The notes beneath the pieces were generated by a model. The model made no database searches, was not told the DNA's origin, and saw nothing but the letters and a program-made list of their open reading frames with translations. Positions 4,175-31,198 of a stretch of DNA of 32,000 bases are shown one piece after another (position 1 is the first letter of the stretch; every line of letters begins with the position of its first letter). Source of the stretch: Candidatus Iainarchaeum sp. (GTDB lineage: Archaea > Iainarchaeota > Iainarchaeia > Iainarchaeales > VGJJ01). The stretch covers positions 180,001 to 212,000 of the forward strand of contig JAUYHT010000002.1 of assembly GCA_030688545.1 (NCBI GenBank), read 5' to 3'. The translations under genes and the position numbers were made by a program.

Positions 4175-5002
4175 CTATTGAGGCACTTTGATAGTCAATC
4201 CCTGCTTGGTGAAAAGCATCTCCGCGACCCCATTATAGTGGTCGGTTCCCCGCATCTTCAAAATCTCGATCGTGTGCCTCCGTTTGAAGGATCCTAAATC
4301 ATCCTCGCTCCGAGAATACGAGAAGGAAACGATTCCATCCGTCAGGAAACCTATTTCCCCCGCCCGCGCATCCACGACTCCCGTGAGCTGCTCCGCGATG
4401 ATGAGGGAGGTGCACCCCCACTTCACGAGCATCTCGAAAAACAGGAGCAGGGCTTCTCTCTGCTTGTAATCATCCCGGAACAACAACCCATACGCGGTAA
4501 TGGAATCGATGACCAGACGTTTCGCCCCAATCTCCGCGATGGTATCACGTACCGTCCCCCCGCCTTCCTCCAAGAGTTTGTTTACTTGGTGGGCCTTGTA
4601 GTAGAGGTGACGCACCATGTTCTGTTTTTCAAGCGCATAAAAGTCCCATCCGAAACTATTGCAATGGCGGTAGATGGATTCCTTGCTCTCGGCGAAACTC
4701 AAATAGACCCCGGGTTCATCCCAGAGAGTGATGCCATTGTAAAGAAACTGCATTGAAAAAGTGGTTTTCCCAGTACCCGCATACCCCGCGAGCAACGTAT
4801 TGGTGCGCTCCTCAAAACCCCCTTCGATCAATTCATCAAAGCCAGGTATGCCGGTTGGAACCCGATTGGGACGAGTGCTCTTATCGCCCGACTTGGATAC
4901 GGGAGCCACCTCCCTTACCCCTTGAGGACGGGAAGCGATGAATGCGGGCTCCCTCAATTCGAACGAGGGCGCGGCATCGGGGGGGGCACGCACATCTACC
5001 AT
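4175..5002 (-). CDS. KaiC-like / RecA-superfamily ATPase (single domain) with about 50-aa low-complexity N-terminal extension
   Basis: VPTGIPGFDELIEGGF..LLAGYAGTGKTTFSMQFLYNG carries a Walker A motif, and RLVIDSI is a Walker B motif. FAESKESI and GWDF blocks are typical of the KaiC family. The ATG at 5002 is 22 nt from the TATA at 5024-5031. Confidence 0.85.
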   Translation of the reverse strand: MVDVRAPPDAAPSFELREPAFIASRPQGVREVAPVSKSGDKSTRPNRVPTGIPGFDELIEGGFEERTNTLLAGYAGTGKTTFSMQFLYNGITLWDEPGVYLSFAESKESIYRHCNSFGWDFYALEKQNMVRHLYYKAHQVNKLLEEGGGTVRDTIAEIGAKRLVIDSITAYGLLFRDDYKQREALLLFFEMLVKWGCTSLIIAEQLTGVVDARAGEIGFLTDGIVSFSYSRSEDDLGSFKRRHTIEILKMRGTDHYNGVAEMLFTKQGLTIKVPQ

Positions 5003-13775: not shown

Positions 13776-14225
13776 ATGCTCGACCTCTTTATTGCCTCCA
13801 ATGACATCCTTGCCCAAATCATTCATTTCGATGAAGACGTCTCGCATTCCCACCAAGCGGCCGGGCTGGAAAAAACCTATCCTATCGTGAAGACGATTGT
13901 CTGTTATACGGGGGGAAAAGACCCTTTGATCTTGGCTATCCTCGAAGCCACCCAAAAGGTTGATTTCCAAAAAATAAAAGCCCTTCTCGGGGTCTCCGAG
14001 GTTCGGCTCGCGACCCCGGAAGAGGTGCTTAACGCGACAGGGTATGAAGTAGGTGGGGTGCCGCCCATCAGCATCTATGGCAGCCCCACTCTAATAGACC
14101 CGGGAGTATTGACGCATCCCTGGGTCGCCTGCGGGGGAGGGGACACCCACTCCCTGCTCAAGATCCAGAGCGCGGACATCCTGAAATGGGCATTCGAACC
14201 CCGCGTCGAACCTATTGCGAAATGA
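13776..14225 (+). CDS. YbaK/ProX-type aminoacyl-tRNA deacylase (trans-editing domain)
   Basis: KTIVCYTGGKDPLILAIL..KVDFQKIKALLGVSEVRLATPEEVLNATGYEVGGVPPI..ACGGG matches the YbaK/prolyl-tRNA editing domain pattern. The ATG at 13776 is 23 nt from TTAAAAAA (13746-13753). Confidence 0.75.
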   Translation: MLDLFIASNDILAQIIHFDEDVSHSHQAAGLEKTYPIVKTIVCYTGGKDPLILAILEATQKVDFQKIKALLGVSEVRLATPEEVLNATGYEVGGVPPISIYGSPTLIDPGVLTHPWVACGGGDTHSLLKIQSADILKWAFEPRVEPIAK

Positions 14226-24373: not shown

Positions 24374-24916
24374 TCAACCTTTCATTTTAAGCGTGAAAAA
24401 CCCATTCTTATCGATATAATATCCCATCCCAAGGATCCATTTCCGGGTGGTGGGAAAAGGAATCCGGAGCGCGATGGATAAATCCACGACTCGAAGATCC
24501 TTTTTCCGTTGCCGTTGCTTCGCCGCCCACGCATGAAGAGACGCTACCAACCCCCCATACGTGGCATGGGCCCATATCAAATCTTCCTTCGAGAGCTTAA
24601 GTTCGTCAGCCAACCTCCATTCCGGCCAATCAAAGTGTTGGCTCGCCAGTAACCCATAATCGATCACACGGGAAGCATATTCCTTTCGGGATTTTCGGTT
24701 GAGGGGTTGGATCTTCCCGCGCACGAACAAAGCATGTTCCCTAATGCTGTCTTCCAATTCCTTTTTCCGTTGGGCCAACTTTTCTCTTGCTAATTTCATG
24801 GCCATTCGAACTTCACTCTTCGTGGCGTTTGGCCCTAGACGGGGGATTCGAACATACCTTCCGTTCTCAATGACATAGTGTTTCAACCGAAATGGCTCGG
24901 GTTTGCGAGCAGGCAT
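24374..24916 (-). CDS. basic hypothetical protein (180 aa)
   Basis: The ATG at 24916 (MPARKPEPFRLKHYV..) is 21 nt from the TATA at 24937-24944. The track's longer ORF to 25051 runs through the tRNA-like repeat and hairpin region and is unlikely to be coding. Confidence 0.5.
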   Translation of the reverse strand: MPARKPEPFRLKHYVIENGRYVRIPRLGPNATKSEVRMAMKLAREKLAQRKKELEDSIREHALFVRGKIQPLNRKSRKEYASRVIDYGLLASQHFDWPEWRLADELKLSKEDLIWAHATYGGLVASLHAWAAKQRQRKKDLRVVDLSIALRIPFPTTRKWILGMGYYIDKNGFFTLKMKG

Positions 24917-24936
24917 CCCTGAAAAAGGGCACGTGG

Positions 24937-24944
24937 CTATAAAA
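24937..24944 (-). promoter_or_regulatory. TATA box (TTTTATAG on minus)
   Basis: It lies 21 nt upstream of the ATG at 24916. On the plus strand it is also 33 nt upstream of the first tRNA-like 5' copy. Confidence 0.45.
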
Positions 24945-24976
24945 CCCATTCCTTCTCCAGCATGGTATACCAATAC

Positions 24977-24988
24977 GGACCCGCAGCT
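24977..24988 (+). repeat. degenerate copy of tRNA-Ile 5' end (GGACCCGCAGCT; 11 of the first 12 nt identical)
   Basis: Direct comparison with the tRNA at 25159-25170. No T-arm or 3' acceptor strand follows. Confidence 0.6.
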
Positions 24989-25061
24989 GGCCCGTTTCGG
25001 CGGGCCGCAGCGACGGTCTACCGAGGGATTTACAATCCCTCGATAAATCAAATAAAATAAC

Positions 25062-25080
25062 GGACCCGTAGCTCAGCCTG
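25062..25080 (+). repeat. exact 19-nt copy of tRNA-Ile 5' end (acceptor strand + D-stem/loop start)
   Basis: GGACCCGTAGCTCAGCCTG is identical to 25159-25177. The sequence diverges afterwards and no T-arm or 3' acceptor strand follows. Confidence 0.9.
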
Positions 25081-25158
25081 CACGCTTTCGCGCGTGCGGG
25101 ACGAGGGACTACGTTGGGGGTTTATCAACCCCCAGTAGGCCTGAATTAGATTAGTGAT

Positions 25159-25232
25159 GGACCCGTAGCTCAGCCTGGTAGAGCAGCGTTCTTATACAGC
25201 GAAGGTCGGAGGTTCAAATCCTCCCGGGTCCA
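25159..25232 (+). tRNA. tRNA-Ile, anticodon TAT (UAU)
   Basis: Manual cloverleaf: acceptor GGACCCG/CGGGTCC, D-arm GCTC-AGCCTGGTA-GAGC. The anticodon arm is GCGTT-CTTATAC-AGCGA (4 bp plus a G27.A43 mismatch, with T33 and A37). The variable loop is AGGTC, the T-arm GGAGG-TTCAAAT-CCTCC, and the discriminator A. No CCA is encoded. A T6 tract lies 22 nt downstream. Confidence 0.85.
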
Positions 25233-25240
25233 CTGCTGCC

Positions 25241-25250
25241 ATTAAATTAT
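25241..25250 (+). promoter_or_regulatory. TATA-like ATTAAATTAT for HD-domain gene
   Basis: It lies about 21 nt upstream of the ATG at 25270. Confidence 0.45.
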
Positions 25251-25253
25251 CTA

Positions 25254-25259
25254 TTTTTT
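25254..25259 (+). terminator. oligo-T (T6) downstream of tRNA-Ile
   Basis: The T6 run lies 22 nt after the tRNA 3' end. Confidence 0.45.
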
Positions 25260-25269
25260 ACATCCTAGT

Positions 25270-26004
25270 ATGGCCTATCTGCCAAGCAGGAAAAGAAAAC
25301 GGATGCCCGGAGGTATCAATCGGAAAACGCGAAATCAGATTCGGGAAAATGAATTACATCTCAGAAAAAACCTACGCCAGAAACGGATCGCGACTCTGCT
25401 TGAAGGACGAGCAGCCAAATTATATGGCGAATTACCCTTTCACAATTGGAACCACGCCCGTTCCCGTATGAAAAAAGGAATGGCCATTGCCCGGCAATGC
25501 GTACGTGAGGGCATTCGCGTAAATTTGGAAGTAGTGAAATGGGCGCTGCTCTTCCATGATGCCGGTTACCACCACGATCACCGCAAAATTGGATATCCTA
25601 CCAAAGAGGCCCACTCGGCCGCGCTTGCCCGAAAAGAAATGGAACGTCTCAACATGGATCCCATGTTGATTCGAGACGTGGAGAAAGCCATTCTCAGTAC
25701 GCACCGGGATGCGCCCTTCCAAACGGTAGAAGAGAAAATCGTTCGTGCTGCTGACCTGGCGGGAATGGCTGGCCCCTACTCCGCATTCCTCCGAGATAAC
25801 CGCCTACTGAAGAAAGAACAAGAGCTGATGCATGGGAATTCCATTTCATGGGAGGAATGGAAAAAACAATCTGAGGAGATAATTGGATTCTACTTGAGCC
25901 AGAATATTCAAGTGACGACCCAGTACCGGGACGCGGCTGGGAAATCAGTCTTCCATACCCGCGTTCGAGACAATCTAGCCCGAATGATGAGGGAACAGGG
26001 ATGA
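25270..26004 (+). CDS. HD-domain phosphohydrolase with basic N-terminal tail
   Basis: FHNWNHARS...ALLFHDAGYHHD gives the H...HD signature. The ATG at 25270 is about 21 nt from the TATA at 25241-25250. Confidence 0.65.
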   Translation: MAYLPSRKRKRMPGGINRKTRNQIRENELHLRKNLRQKRIATLLEGRAAKLYGELPFHNWNHARSRMKKGMAIARQCVREGIRVNLEVVKWALLFHDAGYHHDHRKIGYPTKEAHSAALARKEMERLNMDPMLIRDVEKAILSTHRDAPFQTVEEKIVRAADLAGMAGPYSAFLRDNRLLKKEQELMHGNSISWEEWKKQSEEIIGFYLSQNIQVTTQYRDAAGKSVFHTRVRDNLARMMREQG

Positions 26005-28326: not shown

Positions 28327-28348
28327 CAGTCTCTAGCCCATTCTAGTG

Positions 28349-31198
28349 ATGTATAGCCCTAAGAATGAGGAGAAGTGGCTGGATTTCTGGGAGGAGGGGA
28401 AGATTTTCGAGAAGAGCGTGAAGCAGCGCTCGCCCGAGAAGCCCTACATCTTCTATGATGGCCCCCCTTTCGCCACCGGCTTGCCGCACCATGGGCACAT
28501 TTTGGGGTTGACCATCAAGGACCTTTATCCGCGATATTTCACCATGAAAGGGTATCGGGTGGAACGCCAGTGGGGGTGGGATTGTCACGGACTCCCCGTC
28601 GAGACAAAAGTGGAGGAATTGAAAGGAATCAAAAACAAGAAGCAGATCGAAGAAATGGGGGTGACGGCATTCAATGCCGCGTGCGCGGAGCAAGTGTTGG
28701 AATTTGCGCACGAATGGGGGAAAACCGTTAGACGCATGGGAAAATGGATCGATTTCGAGAACGCCTACAAAACAATGGATCCATCCTACATGGAGAGTGT
28801 GTGGTGGGTGTTCAAGGAGTTGTATGACAAAGGTCACATTTACGAGGGAAAAAAAATACTCATGTATTGCCCAAGATGCCAAACCCCATTAGCCAAGGCC
28901 GAGATCGCCATGGACCATTCCTACAAGAATATCACGGAACCCGCGGCGTATGTGAAGTTTCCCCTGAAAGGGGAGGAAAACATCTATCTCCTGGCGTGGA
29001 CCACGACCCCCTGGACATTAATAGGAAATGCGGCGCTCGCGGTGAACCCGGAAATGATCTATGTGAAGGTGCAACAAGGAAAAGACACCCTCATTCTTGC
29101 CCAGGCGCTCCTGAAAGTACTCACCGGGGACTATACAAAAATGGCCGAATTCAAGGGAAAGGAATTGCTGGGGAAAAAATACAATCCACTATACCATCTC
29201 GACTCGGAAAAAGAAGGGCATTATGTGGTGGATGGCGGGGAGAATGTGAGTGCCGAAGAGGGAACAGGAATCGTGCACATCGCCTCCTACGGGGAATTCG
29301 ATTACGAGCTCATTACTAAATATGACTTACCCCTGTTCACGCATGTACAGGAAAATGGAACCCTTCACGGGGGCCACGCCGATTGGCATGGGCTGTGGTT
29401 CAAGAAAGCCGACCCCCTCATCCTGAAGGAATTAACCGAAAGGGGATTGGTGTACAAGCAGGAGCCCCATTCGCATACCTATCCATTCTGCTACCGCTGT
29501 GAGACCCCTCTTTTTTACCGACCCATGGACTCCTGGTTTGTCCGCATCCAAGCATCCAAGGAACGCATTCTGGCTCGAGCAGAAACTATCCAATGGCACC
29601 CACAAGAAATTGCCAAAACCCGATATTCGTATATCGTAGAAACCATGCCCGACTGGAACATCTCCCGCAATAGGTATTGGGCCACCGCTATTCCCGTATG
29701 GAAATGCTCATCCTGCGGGGAGATGAAGGTTATAGGAAGCATCGCTGAACTGGAAAAATATGCCATCGAACCATTACCCAAAGACATTGATCTGCACAAG
29801 CATGTAGTGGACACCATCCACCTGTTATGCGTCTGCGGGAAAAACATGAGTCGGATTCCCGAAGTCCTCGACTGCTGGTTCGAATCGGGGGCCATGCCCT
29901 ATGCCGCGCGGCATTATCCATTCGAGAACAAGGAAAACCTTTCCACCTTTTTCCCCGCGGAATTTGTATCGGAGTACGTGGCCCAAATACGGGCGTGGTT
30001 CAATTATATGCACGTGTTGGGGGTACTCCTCCTCGATCACGCGCCCTTCAAACACGCCGTGGTGAGTGGAAACATATTGGCTTCCGACGGAAGCAAGATG
30101 TCCAAATCGAAAAAGAATTTCACCGACCCCTTCACCATTTTTGACACCTATGGAGCAGATGCCTTGCGCTTTTACCTGATGCAATCCCCCGTGACGCAAG
30201 CGCAAGATATCCATTTCAAGGATGAGGGAGTGCAGGAAGTGTATCGAAAGGTCATCCTGCCCGCGGCCAACACATTGGATTTCTATCGGATGTATGCCGC
30301 TCAAAAAACTAAATTGGAAAACCCCCATTCCCCTCACATTTTAGACAAATGGATTATCGCGCGCCTCCACCAGACCCTTTCCCGCGTGACGGAAGGGTTG
30401 GATGGATATGATACTATTACTCCCTGCCAGGCCTTATCCAGCTTCATCAGCGATCTTTCCACGTGGTATCTCCGCCGGAGCCGGGAACGCGTCAAAGGAA
30501 CGAATGACCAGGATAAAATGGACGCCATTCGTACCTTGGCTTATGTCCTCCACCAATTGAGTCACCTGCTCGCCCCAATTACTCCCTTCCTCGCGGAAGA
30601 AATTTTCCAAACACTCAAGAAAATGCATCCCGGGATGAAAGAAAGCGTGCACCTCGAAGACTGGCCCCGCGCGGATGAAAAAATGATTGATCCAATCATC
30701 CTCCAGAACATGGACGCCTGCCGGGAAGCCGTGCGCCTCGCCCTTGACCAGAGGGAACGCCATAAAATACCGATTCGGCAGCCCTTGTCAAAAGCCACGC
30801 TCTATGGGATTACTTTAAACGACGCTATGTCATCCATTTTCAAGGATGAATTACATGTGAAGGAAGTGTCCTTCGCGGAGGCCGGAAAAGACGGGGTGCG
30901 GGTGGAACTGGACACCACACTCACTCCCACCCTCCTCGCGGAAGGCGCGGCGCGGGAACTCATGCGGGCCATCCAGGATTTGAGGAAGAAGGCCAATATG
31001 CAGCCCCAGGAAGAAGTGGAGGTGTTCCTGGAATCCTCTCCCCAATTCCAAAAAATGATTTCTCCTCATTCGGAGGAGGTGAAAGCCAAGGTGCGGGCCC
31101 GCACCATCACTTATAGTAAGGCCACTAATCCATTGCAGGAAACCAATATCATCATCAAAGAGGAACCCCTTACCATACAACTCCAGAAAAGGACGTGA
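28349..31198 (+). CDS. ileS: isoleucyl-tRNA synthetase (archaeal/eukaryal type), relatively short
   Basis: FYDGPPFATGLPHHGHIL carries the HIGH region and KMSKSKKN is the KMSKS motif. WNISRNRYWATAIPVW is also present. The ATG at 28349 is 23 nt from the TATA at 28320-28326. Confidence 0.93.
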   Translation: MYSPKNEEKWLDFWEEGKIFEKSVKQRSPEKPYIFYDGPPFATGLPHHGHILGLTIKDLYPRYFTMKGYRVERQWGWDCHGLPVETKVEELKGIKNKKQIEEMGVTAFNAACAEQVLEFAHEWGKTVRRMGKWIDFENAYKTMDPSYMESVWWVFKELYDKGHIYEGKKILMYCPRCQTPLAKAEIAMDHSYKNITEPAAYVKFPLKGEENIYLLAWTTTPWTLIGNAALAVNPEMIYVKVQQGKDTLILAQALLKVLTGDYTKMAEFKGKELLGKKYNPLYHLDSEKEGHYVVDGGENVSAEEGTGIVHIASYGEFDYELITKYDLPLFTHVQENGTLHGGHADWHGLWFKKADPLILKELTERGLVYKQEPHSHTYPFCYRCETPLFYRPMDSWFVRIQASKERILARAETIQWHPQEIAKTRYSYIVETMPDWNISRNRYWATAIPVWKCSSCGEMKVIGSIAELEKYAIEPLPKDIDLHKHVVDTIHLLCVCGKNMSRIPEVLDCWFESGAMPYAARHYPFENKENLSTFFPAEFVSEYVAQIRAWFNYMHVLGVLLLDHAPFKHAVVSGNILASDGSKMSKSKKNFTDPFTIFDTYGADALRFYLMQSPVTQAQDIHFKDEGVQEVYRKVILPAANTLDFYRMYAAQKTKLENPHSPHILDKWIIARLHQTLSRVTEGLDGYDTITPCQALSSFISDLSTWYLRRSRERVKGTNDQDKMDAIRTLAYVLHQLSHLLAPITPFLAEEIFQTLKKMHPGMKESVHLEDWPRADEKMIDPIILQNMDACREAVRLALDQRERHKIPIRQPLSKATLYGITLNDAMSSIFKDELHVKEVSFAEAGKDGVRVELDTTLTPTLLAEGAARELMRAIQDLRKKANMQPQEEVEVFLESSPQFQKMISPHSEEVKAKVRARTITYSKATNPLQETNIIIKEEPLTIQLQKRT

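Follow-up and report, generated by a model that had tools for sequence, protein, structure and literature searches.

Integration commonly leaves partial tRNA genes behind as relics (PMC9897764), and two further phenomena have been documented in archaea, recombination with the 5′-distal part of a tRNA gene, which is rarer, and the reuse of one site in a manner that builds arrays (PMC6563490). In bacteria, decayed elements that keep both attachment sites (attL and attR), known as cis-mobilizable elements (CIMEs), and tandem accretion have been described (PMC5704250, PMC3146451), and arrays of ssrA 3′ repeats are found in Dehalococcoides (PMC3146451). Here, we analyzed a 32-kb stretch of DNA from Candidatus Iainarchaeum sp. 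(hereafter, the window), a DPANN archaeon close to Iainarchaeia, in which the only complete tRNA-Ile(UAU) gene is preceded by two units that each begin with a copy of the 5′ end of that tRNA and continue into two hairpins (H1 and H2). We lean toward the view that these upstream units are non-functional relics of two rounds of recombinational insertion, or accretion, in the tRNA-Ile(UAU) gene; the recombination mechanism and any present role of the units are what we infer from the comparisons below.

The 19-mer that forms the tRNA 5′ end (GGACCCGTAGCTCAGCCTG) had two exact occurrences in the 32 kb (25062 and 25159), against 0.01 matches in shuffled sequences, and a search with the tRNA 12-mer, allowing one mismatch, recovered three sites (24977, 25062, and 25159), a number reached by none of 100 shuffles. 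Three GGACCCG starts are thereby arranged head to tail, with spacings of 85 and 97 nt. Specifically, the tRNA-derived cores of the units matched the tRNA at 11 of 12 and 19 of 19 positions, while the modules that follow were ~70% identical to each other over 49 locally aligned columns. Outside the tRNA cores, the local alignment of unit 1 with unit 2 scored 33, as opposed to 15.8 ± 3.2 for shuffles (0 of 2000 as high), and only 4 of 2960 random segments of the window scored as high. Folding energies of the whole units were −40.6 kcal/mol for unit 1 (z −5.7) and −42.4 kcal/mol for unit 2 (z −3.95). A first-pass annotation had assigned coordinates to the tRNA, the 19-mer, the 12-mer copy, and the four hairpins, all of which were reproduced by ARAGORN, Rfam, the repeat search, and folding; the architecture that it described as common to both units is borne out by the alignment score.

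That annotation also held that the upstream copies are not complete tRNAs, and we agree. The 3′ acceptor strand CGGGTCC and a T-arm occur once in the locus, at 25208-25231, and the upstream units contain no 3′ acceptor strand complementary to the 5′ end; they gave no tRNA match with ARAGORN, nor with Rfam in a permissive E-value mode on 24850-25300. The pattern of repeated 5′ ends with a single 3′ acceptor strand is what might be expected if the units were alternative 5′ pieces of a split or tri-split tRNA, joined in trans or in cis to one 3′ part, and the presence of several tRNA 5′ segments in one reduced-genome archaeal lineage recalls the split tRNAs of Nanoarchaeum and Caldivirga (PMC3218864). 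However, the downstream gene is complete and contiguous, and scored 65.3 bits with the Rfam tRNA model, while the fragments, at 12 or 19 nt, are too short, with neither a complete D arm nor the 5′ half of an anticodon, and are identical to the tRNA, so that they encode nothing new. Moreover, by eye we saw no bulge-helix-bulge and no leader complementary to the 3′ half, or leader/trailer pairing of the split type, and the units fold as self-contained hairpins. We therefore abandon the split-tRNA proposal of the first-pass annotation, which we regard as extremely improbable.

We utilized the 25-mer of the anticodon arm to scan species-representative genomes and thereby recovered seven uncultured archaea, one of which is named Candidatus Iainarchaeum (comparison contigs are labeled L001-L025). 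The order RIO kinase, thermosome, small open reading frame (ORF), tRNA, and HD gene was kept in relatives, the closest syntenic one being L002 (the same contig as L008), with a thermosome 85% and an HD protein 57% identical to those of the window. In none of the seven related species was the tRNA preceded by a 5′ fragment. A conserved GCTATAAAA box was situated directly upstream of the complete tRNA in L002, L007, and L011, and upstream of unit 1 in the window; in L002, the complete tRNA starts 26 nt after this box, which also adjoins the start of the divergent small ORF, just as the native TATA box of the window is common to the divergent 180-aa ORF and, in relatives, to the tRNA. Because the same TATA box precedes the tRNA of the relatives, unit 1 marks the ancestral tRNA start and the working gene has been shifted 182 nt downstream; the shared box shows that unit 1 and the tRNA start are homologous in position. 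Relative to the empty state in relatives, the window has 182 nt inserted after about tRNA position 12, made up of two blocks (73 and 78 nt), each a module with its spacer and each ending with a new tRNA 5′-end copy. Such a layout is the signature of recombination inside a tRNA gene, whereby the gene is rebuilt on one side and a fragment is stranded on the other.

The DNA bracketed by each pair of tRNA starts, only 73-78 nt per unit, is homologous to modules found at the same tRNA in relatives. There, in at least seven related species, the module lay directly after the complete tRNA (L002, L006/L015, L007, L009, L010, L012, and L022), across a linker of 1-5 nt (CTT, CTG, or T), and L005 had an H2-like hairpin just upstream of the HD gene. 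The module comprised H1 (a 5-6 bp stem with a 6-10 nt loop), a spacer of ~10 nt, and H2 (an 8-11 bp stem), with the latter usually followed within 1-9 nt by a T-rich run. Across 10 modules from relatives, seven of nine H2 pairs had changed on both sides and 98.9% of cells were paired, figures not approached by any shuffled or slid control. A covariance model (R1), built from these 10 modules only and run over the window with filters off, had a single significant match in the 32 kb, namely unit 1 (24986-25050, full length, 22.9 bits, E = 1e-4), and this match establishes that the module and unit 1 are homologous. The homology of unit 2 to the module follows from its similarity to unit 1. Among individual modules, that of L012 (GGCCAG-TTTCGG-CTGGCC-ACTGCGACGTTT-GAGGGATAGC-TCG-GCTATCCCTC-GGCCTGACG) is plainly the counterpart of unit 1, with an identical H1 loop, and shares the tail GGCCTGA with unit 2. 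No further match with E below about 0.03 was found away from the tRNA-Ile locus in ~95 kb of related sequence, and the module is thus tied to this locus and is not a dispersed repeat. Its number varied: L002, L010, and L022 have two modules each, L009 has one, L011 has none, and L023 lacks one between the tRNA and the HD gene; its tRNA 3′ end abuts the HD promoter, as in the window.

These comparisons bear on whether the units could have arisen by local tandem duplication of the native promoter plus the tRNA 5′ end, through slippage or unequal crossing-over and with no foreign element. The three head-to-tail starts, an A/T-rich box at a similar distance before each, and the mutual homology of the units would all fit such an origin. 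Yet the DNA after the first fragment is related to the module of the relatives and not to the native upstream region, no module lies downstream of the window tRNA that could have been a local source (L023 being alike in this respect), and a 19/19 core beside far more divergent flanks fits one neutral event poorly. We consider a local duplication very unlikely. The first-pass annotation had considered duplication of the promoter and 5′ end among its readings, and what remains of it is that the A/T loops of H2 are at promoter distance, although not the 27-38 nt it gave, since 25 and 30 nt separate the ends of the TATA-like octamers from the GGACCCG that follows; the unit body, on the other hand, comes from a trailer-type module and not from the native promoter. 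Similarly, where it saw an old duplication with diverged sequence, the homology of the units stands, while a single old neutral event does not: the contrast between core and module identity appears to fit stepwise events, or late loss from once-functional copies, better.

In the insertion scenario that we favor, the tRNA gene would originally have stood directly behind the TATA box. In each event, the old 5′ end (now 12 and 19 nt) would have been left upstream, joined to a two-hairpin module of ~75 nt, and a complete tRNA would have been rebuilt further downstream, beside the HD gene. There are two variants of this scenario. In the first, the inserted DNA would have carried the tRNA 5′ end alone as its attachment core, which would require the module to have switched neighbors, from the tRNA 3′ end as in relatives to the 5′ end as in the window. 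In the second, it would have carried a whole tRNA, linker, and module, as in relatives, and the redundant upstream tRNA bodies would later have been deleted between CT or CTG microhomologies (2-3 nt), requiring two extra deletions. The junctions AGCT/G and CCTG/C (the slash marks the joint) are compatible with tRNA positions 11-12 and 17-19 as well as with a CT(T/G) linker, and the present tRNA is itself followed by CTG; given this fit to the linker, microhomology deletion would give exactly the joints observed. Either the interiors of the elements would have been lost or the elements would always have been miniature, leaving a decayed, CIME-like array. The empty-site junction would then have read native promoter ...ATACCAATAC/GGACCCGTAGCTCAGCCTGGTAGAGC full tRNA, and the junction of an excision circle ...ATTAGATTAGTGAT/GGACCCGTAGCTCAGCCTG/CACGCTTTCG.

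Set against attachment-site (att) relics of tyrosine-recombinase integrative elements in archaea and bacteria (PMC9897764; Williams 2002 as cited there), the locus is alike in having a direct repeat of a tRNA end beside a complete gene. It is also alike in that the relic occupies the ancestral position, and that relatives hold a partial repeat and a recombinase remnant. It differs in that the repeats are of the 5′ end (the rarer situation; PMC6563490), in that 73-78 nt, not kilobases, are bracketed, with no integrase or cargo, and in that the bracketed DNA is a structured module that in relatives follows the tRNA 3′ end. The empty site is present in L002, L007, and L011, and the tRNA-end direct repeat is present beside the intact gene, whereas an integrase gene or remnant in or beside the bracketed DNA is absent from the window, the only fragment next to a homologous module being in the relative L015. 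The resemblance to bacterial accretion arrays and CIMEs (PMC5704250, PMC3146451) lies in a repeatedly used target, head-to-tail att repeats with decayed elements between them, and a variable copy number; those arrays contain kilobase islands and lie at bacterial gene 3′ ends, however, whereas the locus herein is archaeal and at a 5′ end, with units of <100 nt and putative mobility.

Further traces of recombination were seen in the relatives. In L002 (and alike in L008), the tRNA-Ile 3′ end recurs as an exact 16-nt direct repeat (L002:4664-4679 and 4799-4814), the second copy being 120 nt beyond the gene; a module of the type GGAGG..CCTC GGCTGGACGTTTTC comes after the tRNA, and one of the type GGTG..CACC TCTT after the repeat. 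More decayed versions of this repeat-plus-module arrangement were present in L010 and L022. Downstream of its module and a T/A hairpin, L015 has a truncated tyrosine-recombinase frame that matches PF00589 (Phage_integrase; 39.4 bits, profile positions 97-141) and lacks the N-terminal two-thirds. Thus, among the origins raised by the first-pass annotation, we favor recombination scars, on the basis of the position of unit 1, the homology of the module, and the partial tRNA repeat and tyrosine-recombinase fragment in relatives.

Several side observations concern these same contigs. L012 probably has the same 16-nt repeat, masked by N, and the 3′-end repeat array of L002 is a 3′ counterpart of the 5′-end array of the window. 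The tyrosine-recombinase fragments of L015 (848-1069) and L025 (120-400) start at the same residue (LFSK[E/D]K..HTLRH), have unrelated left-hand contexts, and have in-frame stops just upstream; the break in L015 falls at a perfect T/A hairpin of 10 bp (CTTTTCTTTT-CTC-AAAAGAAAAG), which L002 and L012 carry with no integrase. Together these fragments look as if an SSV-type integrase had been split when it integrated, the T/A hairpin being a putative attB. The integrase fragment also matched P0078, which is a bacterial gene of XerC/D type. In L022 (200-830), an insertion of ~650 nt that contains small ORFs separates the modules from the HD gene; a RelE-like toxin-antitoxin identity was considered for two of these and set aside, as Pfam gives no family.

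A number of points weigh against the insertion scenario. The window contains no integrase or other element gene (Pfam on 10 ORFs; tblastn), and the 19-mer does not bound a large element there, so that neither the neighboring integrase nor the bounded element that the first-pass annotation had proposed looking for was found. Additionally, no viral or episomal form was recovered in scans of viral contigs with the anticodon-arm 25-mer, the 21-mer after the module, the 5′ 19-mer, and the 3′ 16-mer, which returned nothing, or unrelated phage tRNA clusters and coding matches. The R1 model of the relatives' modules fails to recognize unit 2. The module joins the tRNA 3′ end in relatives and the 5′ end in the window, and because of this difference an att-scar model needs a switch of core, and its alternative the two extra deletions. 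Two independent decays to the same tiny, collinear size would be unlikely, unless the elements were miniature or one was copied from the other, and the perfectly paired hairpins of both units suggest selection or recent origin and not decay. Finally, the integrase fragment of L015 may be part not of the module but of a distinct element whose target is a nearby hairpin.

In a different explanation, the units would be kept by selection as a functional cis-element or small RNA, the two-hairpin module being a structured RNA linked to tRNA-Ile(UAU) that acts as a trailer in relatives and as a leader in the window. Such a function could take the form of TATA boxes set in palindromes, that is, regulated promoters, of a leader removed by RNase P, or of released RNAs of 80-100 nt, and such a role would be compatible with a recombinational origin. 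Strong H2 covariation across relatives, hairpins that are intact in both units despite sequence divergence, the restriction of the module to this locus, TATA-like H2 centers at promoter distance that are exclusive to the window, and the absence from the window of the T-runs that follow H2 in relatives, which would allow read-through to the tRNA, all speak in its favor. On the other side, the module is missing in L011, and between the tRNA and the HD gene in L023, and because some relatives have none the tRNA can do without it; the upstream arrangement occurs in no other sampled genome, and Rfam 15 contained no credible family over the modules of the window or relatives, the tRNA being the sole match. 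Pairing of the 5′ fragment with the spacer was not clearly above chance, at p = 0.026 (0.03 when rounded) for unit 1 and 0.31 for unit 2. Weighing both sides, we find it rather unlikely that the units are selected in this way.

Archaeal termination is generally thought to need oligo-T alone. The modules of relatives resemble tRNA trailers that consist of a hairpin plus a T-run, with a GC-rich H2 of 8-11 bp and a T-rich run 1-9 nt on, although a terminator role in relatives is putative; the window units differ in having no T-run and in being upstream of the tRNA. Indeed, the stretch from the native promoter to the end of the tRNA contains no T-run terminator, and the units do not show the hairpin-plus-T-run trait. 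Read-through into the tRNA is expected, since there is no run of at least four T up to the T6 run at 25254, which itself overlaps the promoter region of the HD gene (ATG at 25270). For the same reason, a discrete small RNA, as the first-pass annotation had also entertained, would need processing. Transcription from the native promoter would read through both relics into the tRNA, with a structured leader of ~190 nt for RNase P to remove, and the H2 loops may add starts of their own; the predicted start sites are near 24966, 25058, and 25150. Boxes of the TTTTATAG or TTTAAATA type have their 3′ end 20-22 nt before the ATG of other genes in the window, and TATA-like H2 centers are present only in the window modules, those of relatives being mostly GC-rich or mixed. 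On these grounds, the relics probably now serve as a tRNA 5′ leader, as substitute promoters, or as both.

A related possibility concerns the module itself, which could be a new miniature, non-autonomous element or a structured recombination site for tRNA-Ile(UAU) in Iainarchaeia-like DPANN archaea, or else a new family of tRNA-linked structured RNA, trailer or leader, with its own TATA box; we view this as distinctly unlikely. As a miniature element, it would be ~75-135 nt long, conserved in structure and variable in sequence, would give rise to tandem copies of itself at either gene end, each time together with a copy of the tRNA end, and would be moved in trans by a tyrosine recombinase. 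Other hairpin-bearing candidates were rejected, namely C/D-box RNAs, integron attC sites, and hairpin ends of IS200/IS605 type, since by eye there were no box motifs, R′/R″ sites, or associated genes, and direct repeats do not fit them.

With respect to the deeper origin of the modules, CAGCGACGGTC in the unit 1 spacer resembles tRNA 25197-25207, and the collinear similarity of unit 1 to the tRNA body, in which CAGCGACGGTC is followed by a T-arm-like hairpin, was marginal (p about 0.03); the same test gave nothing for unit 2 and three modules of relatives. The outer 4-5 bp of H2 (L002, L007, L009, L010, L012, L015, L022, and the window at 25022-25042 and 25114-25135) resemble the two T-stem variants of these tRNAs, GGTGG/CCACC or GGAGG/CCTCC. 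The modules may ultimately be remodeled 3′ parts of tRNAs. Elsewhere in the window, a 14/16 match to the tRNA 3′ end (AATACTCCCGGGTCTA) at 14095-14110 on the minus strand lies in a coding-like region with no tRNA-like context and is at chance level.

Table 1. Features of the tRNA-Ile(UAU) locus, in coordinates of the window.
Feature	Position	Strand	Basis or remark
Orphan 180-aa ORF	24374-24916 (ATG at 24916)	-	Divergent from the tRNA locus; common TATA box
Native TATA box (CTATAAAA on +, TTTTATAG on -)	24937-24944	both	Ends 32 nt before unit 1
Unit 1 tRNA 5′-end remnant (GGACCCGCAGCT, 11/12)	24977-24988	+	12-mer search; alignment on the TATA box of relatives
Unit 1 hairpin H1 (GGCCCG-TTTCGG-CGGGCC)	24989-25006	+	Folding; aligned to H1 of relatives by covariance model R1
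Unit 1 spacer (GCAGCGACGGTCTAC)	25007-25021	+	Partly complementary to the 5′ fragment
Unit 1 hairpin H2 (CGAGGGAT-TTACA-ATCCCTCG)	25022-25042	+	Folding; covariance model
Unit 1 H2 A/T-rich center (TTTACAAT)	25029-25036	+	Ends 25 nt ahead of unit 2
A/T-rich spacer S1	25043-25061	+	T runs of at most three
Unit 2, exact 19-nt copy of the tRNA 5′ end	25062-25080	+	19-mer search
Unit 2 hairpin H1 (CACGC-TTTCGC-GCGTG)	25081-25096	+	Stem reaches into tRNA-derived CCTG
Unit 2 hairpin H2 (TTGGGGGT-TTATCA-ACCCCCAG)	25114-25135	+	Folding
Unit 2 H2 center (TTTATCAA)	25121-25128	+	Ends 30 nt ahead of the tRNA
Spacer S2 (TAGGCCTGAATTAGATTAGTGAT)	25136-25158	+	Contains GGCCTGA, the sequence after H2 in L012
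tRNA-Ile(UAU), only complete gene	25159-25232	+	74 nt; ARAGORN, Rfam
T6 run, presumed terminator	25254-25259	+	Only run of at least four T on the + strand in 24917-25270

The genes around the locus are, in order, a RIO kinase (-), a thermosome (+), the 180-aa ORF (-), the two units, the tRNA (the single tRNA of the window, called by ARAGORN at 25159-25233), and the HD-domain gene (+), beyond which are a UMPH-1 nucleotidase, a second HD-domain (HD_3) gene, and then IleRS. An identical locus sequence was found in a separately assembled contig (L001; Logan SRR13727534), although the same reads may underlie both. The 180-aa ORF had no homologue but itself in a search of 5.8 billion proteins, and its similarity to the small ORF at the equivalent site in L002 was not significant (E = 0.22); the gene is either an orphan or evolving fast. 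For the HD protein, the more distant homologues P0011 and P0007 have bacterial surroundings.

Other observations concern the tRNA and its decoding partner. The IleRS gene (28346-31198) lies ~3 kb from tRNA-Ile(UAU) in the window, and in L005 (2128-5034) the HD gene is followed by nucleotidase and IleRS genes, on a contig that starts just upstream of the HD gene, with the tRNA itself unseen. AUA is apparently decoded by a tRNA-Ile with a genomic UAU anticodon, not CAU, and the top pair of the anticodon stem is the same G-A mismatch in the tRNA-Ile(UAU) of all relatives. Seven of nine metagenome matches (L013, L014, and L017-L021) were marine phage-like contigs with clusters that include tRNA-Ile(UAU) and that are unrelated to the locus; the marine phage tRNA agrees with the archaeal gene throughout the 25-nt anticodon-arm region and differs from it in the remainder.

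Taken as a whole, the locus is most likely a tRNA integration hotspot with a miniature relic array at its 5′ end. If the units are indeed relics of insertion, they would document in compact form how an essential tRNA gene, present once in a reduced DPANN genome and presumably required for AUA decoding, was repeatedly hit and rebuilt, and would add a rare case of a tRNA scar at the 5′ end, in miniature form. For annotators, the locus is a caution that such 5′ fragments are not split tRNAs. Moreover, it brings to light a conserved and covarying two-hairpin module, linked to tRNA-Ile(UAU) and not in Rfam, for which terminator, recombination site, and small RNA are candidate roles, and the TATA-like loops of its hairpins in the window suggest that inserted DNA may have been co-opted as the promoter of the gene that it displaced.

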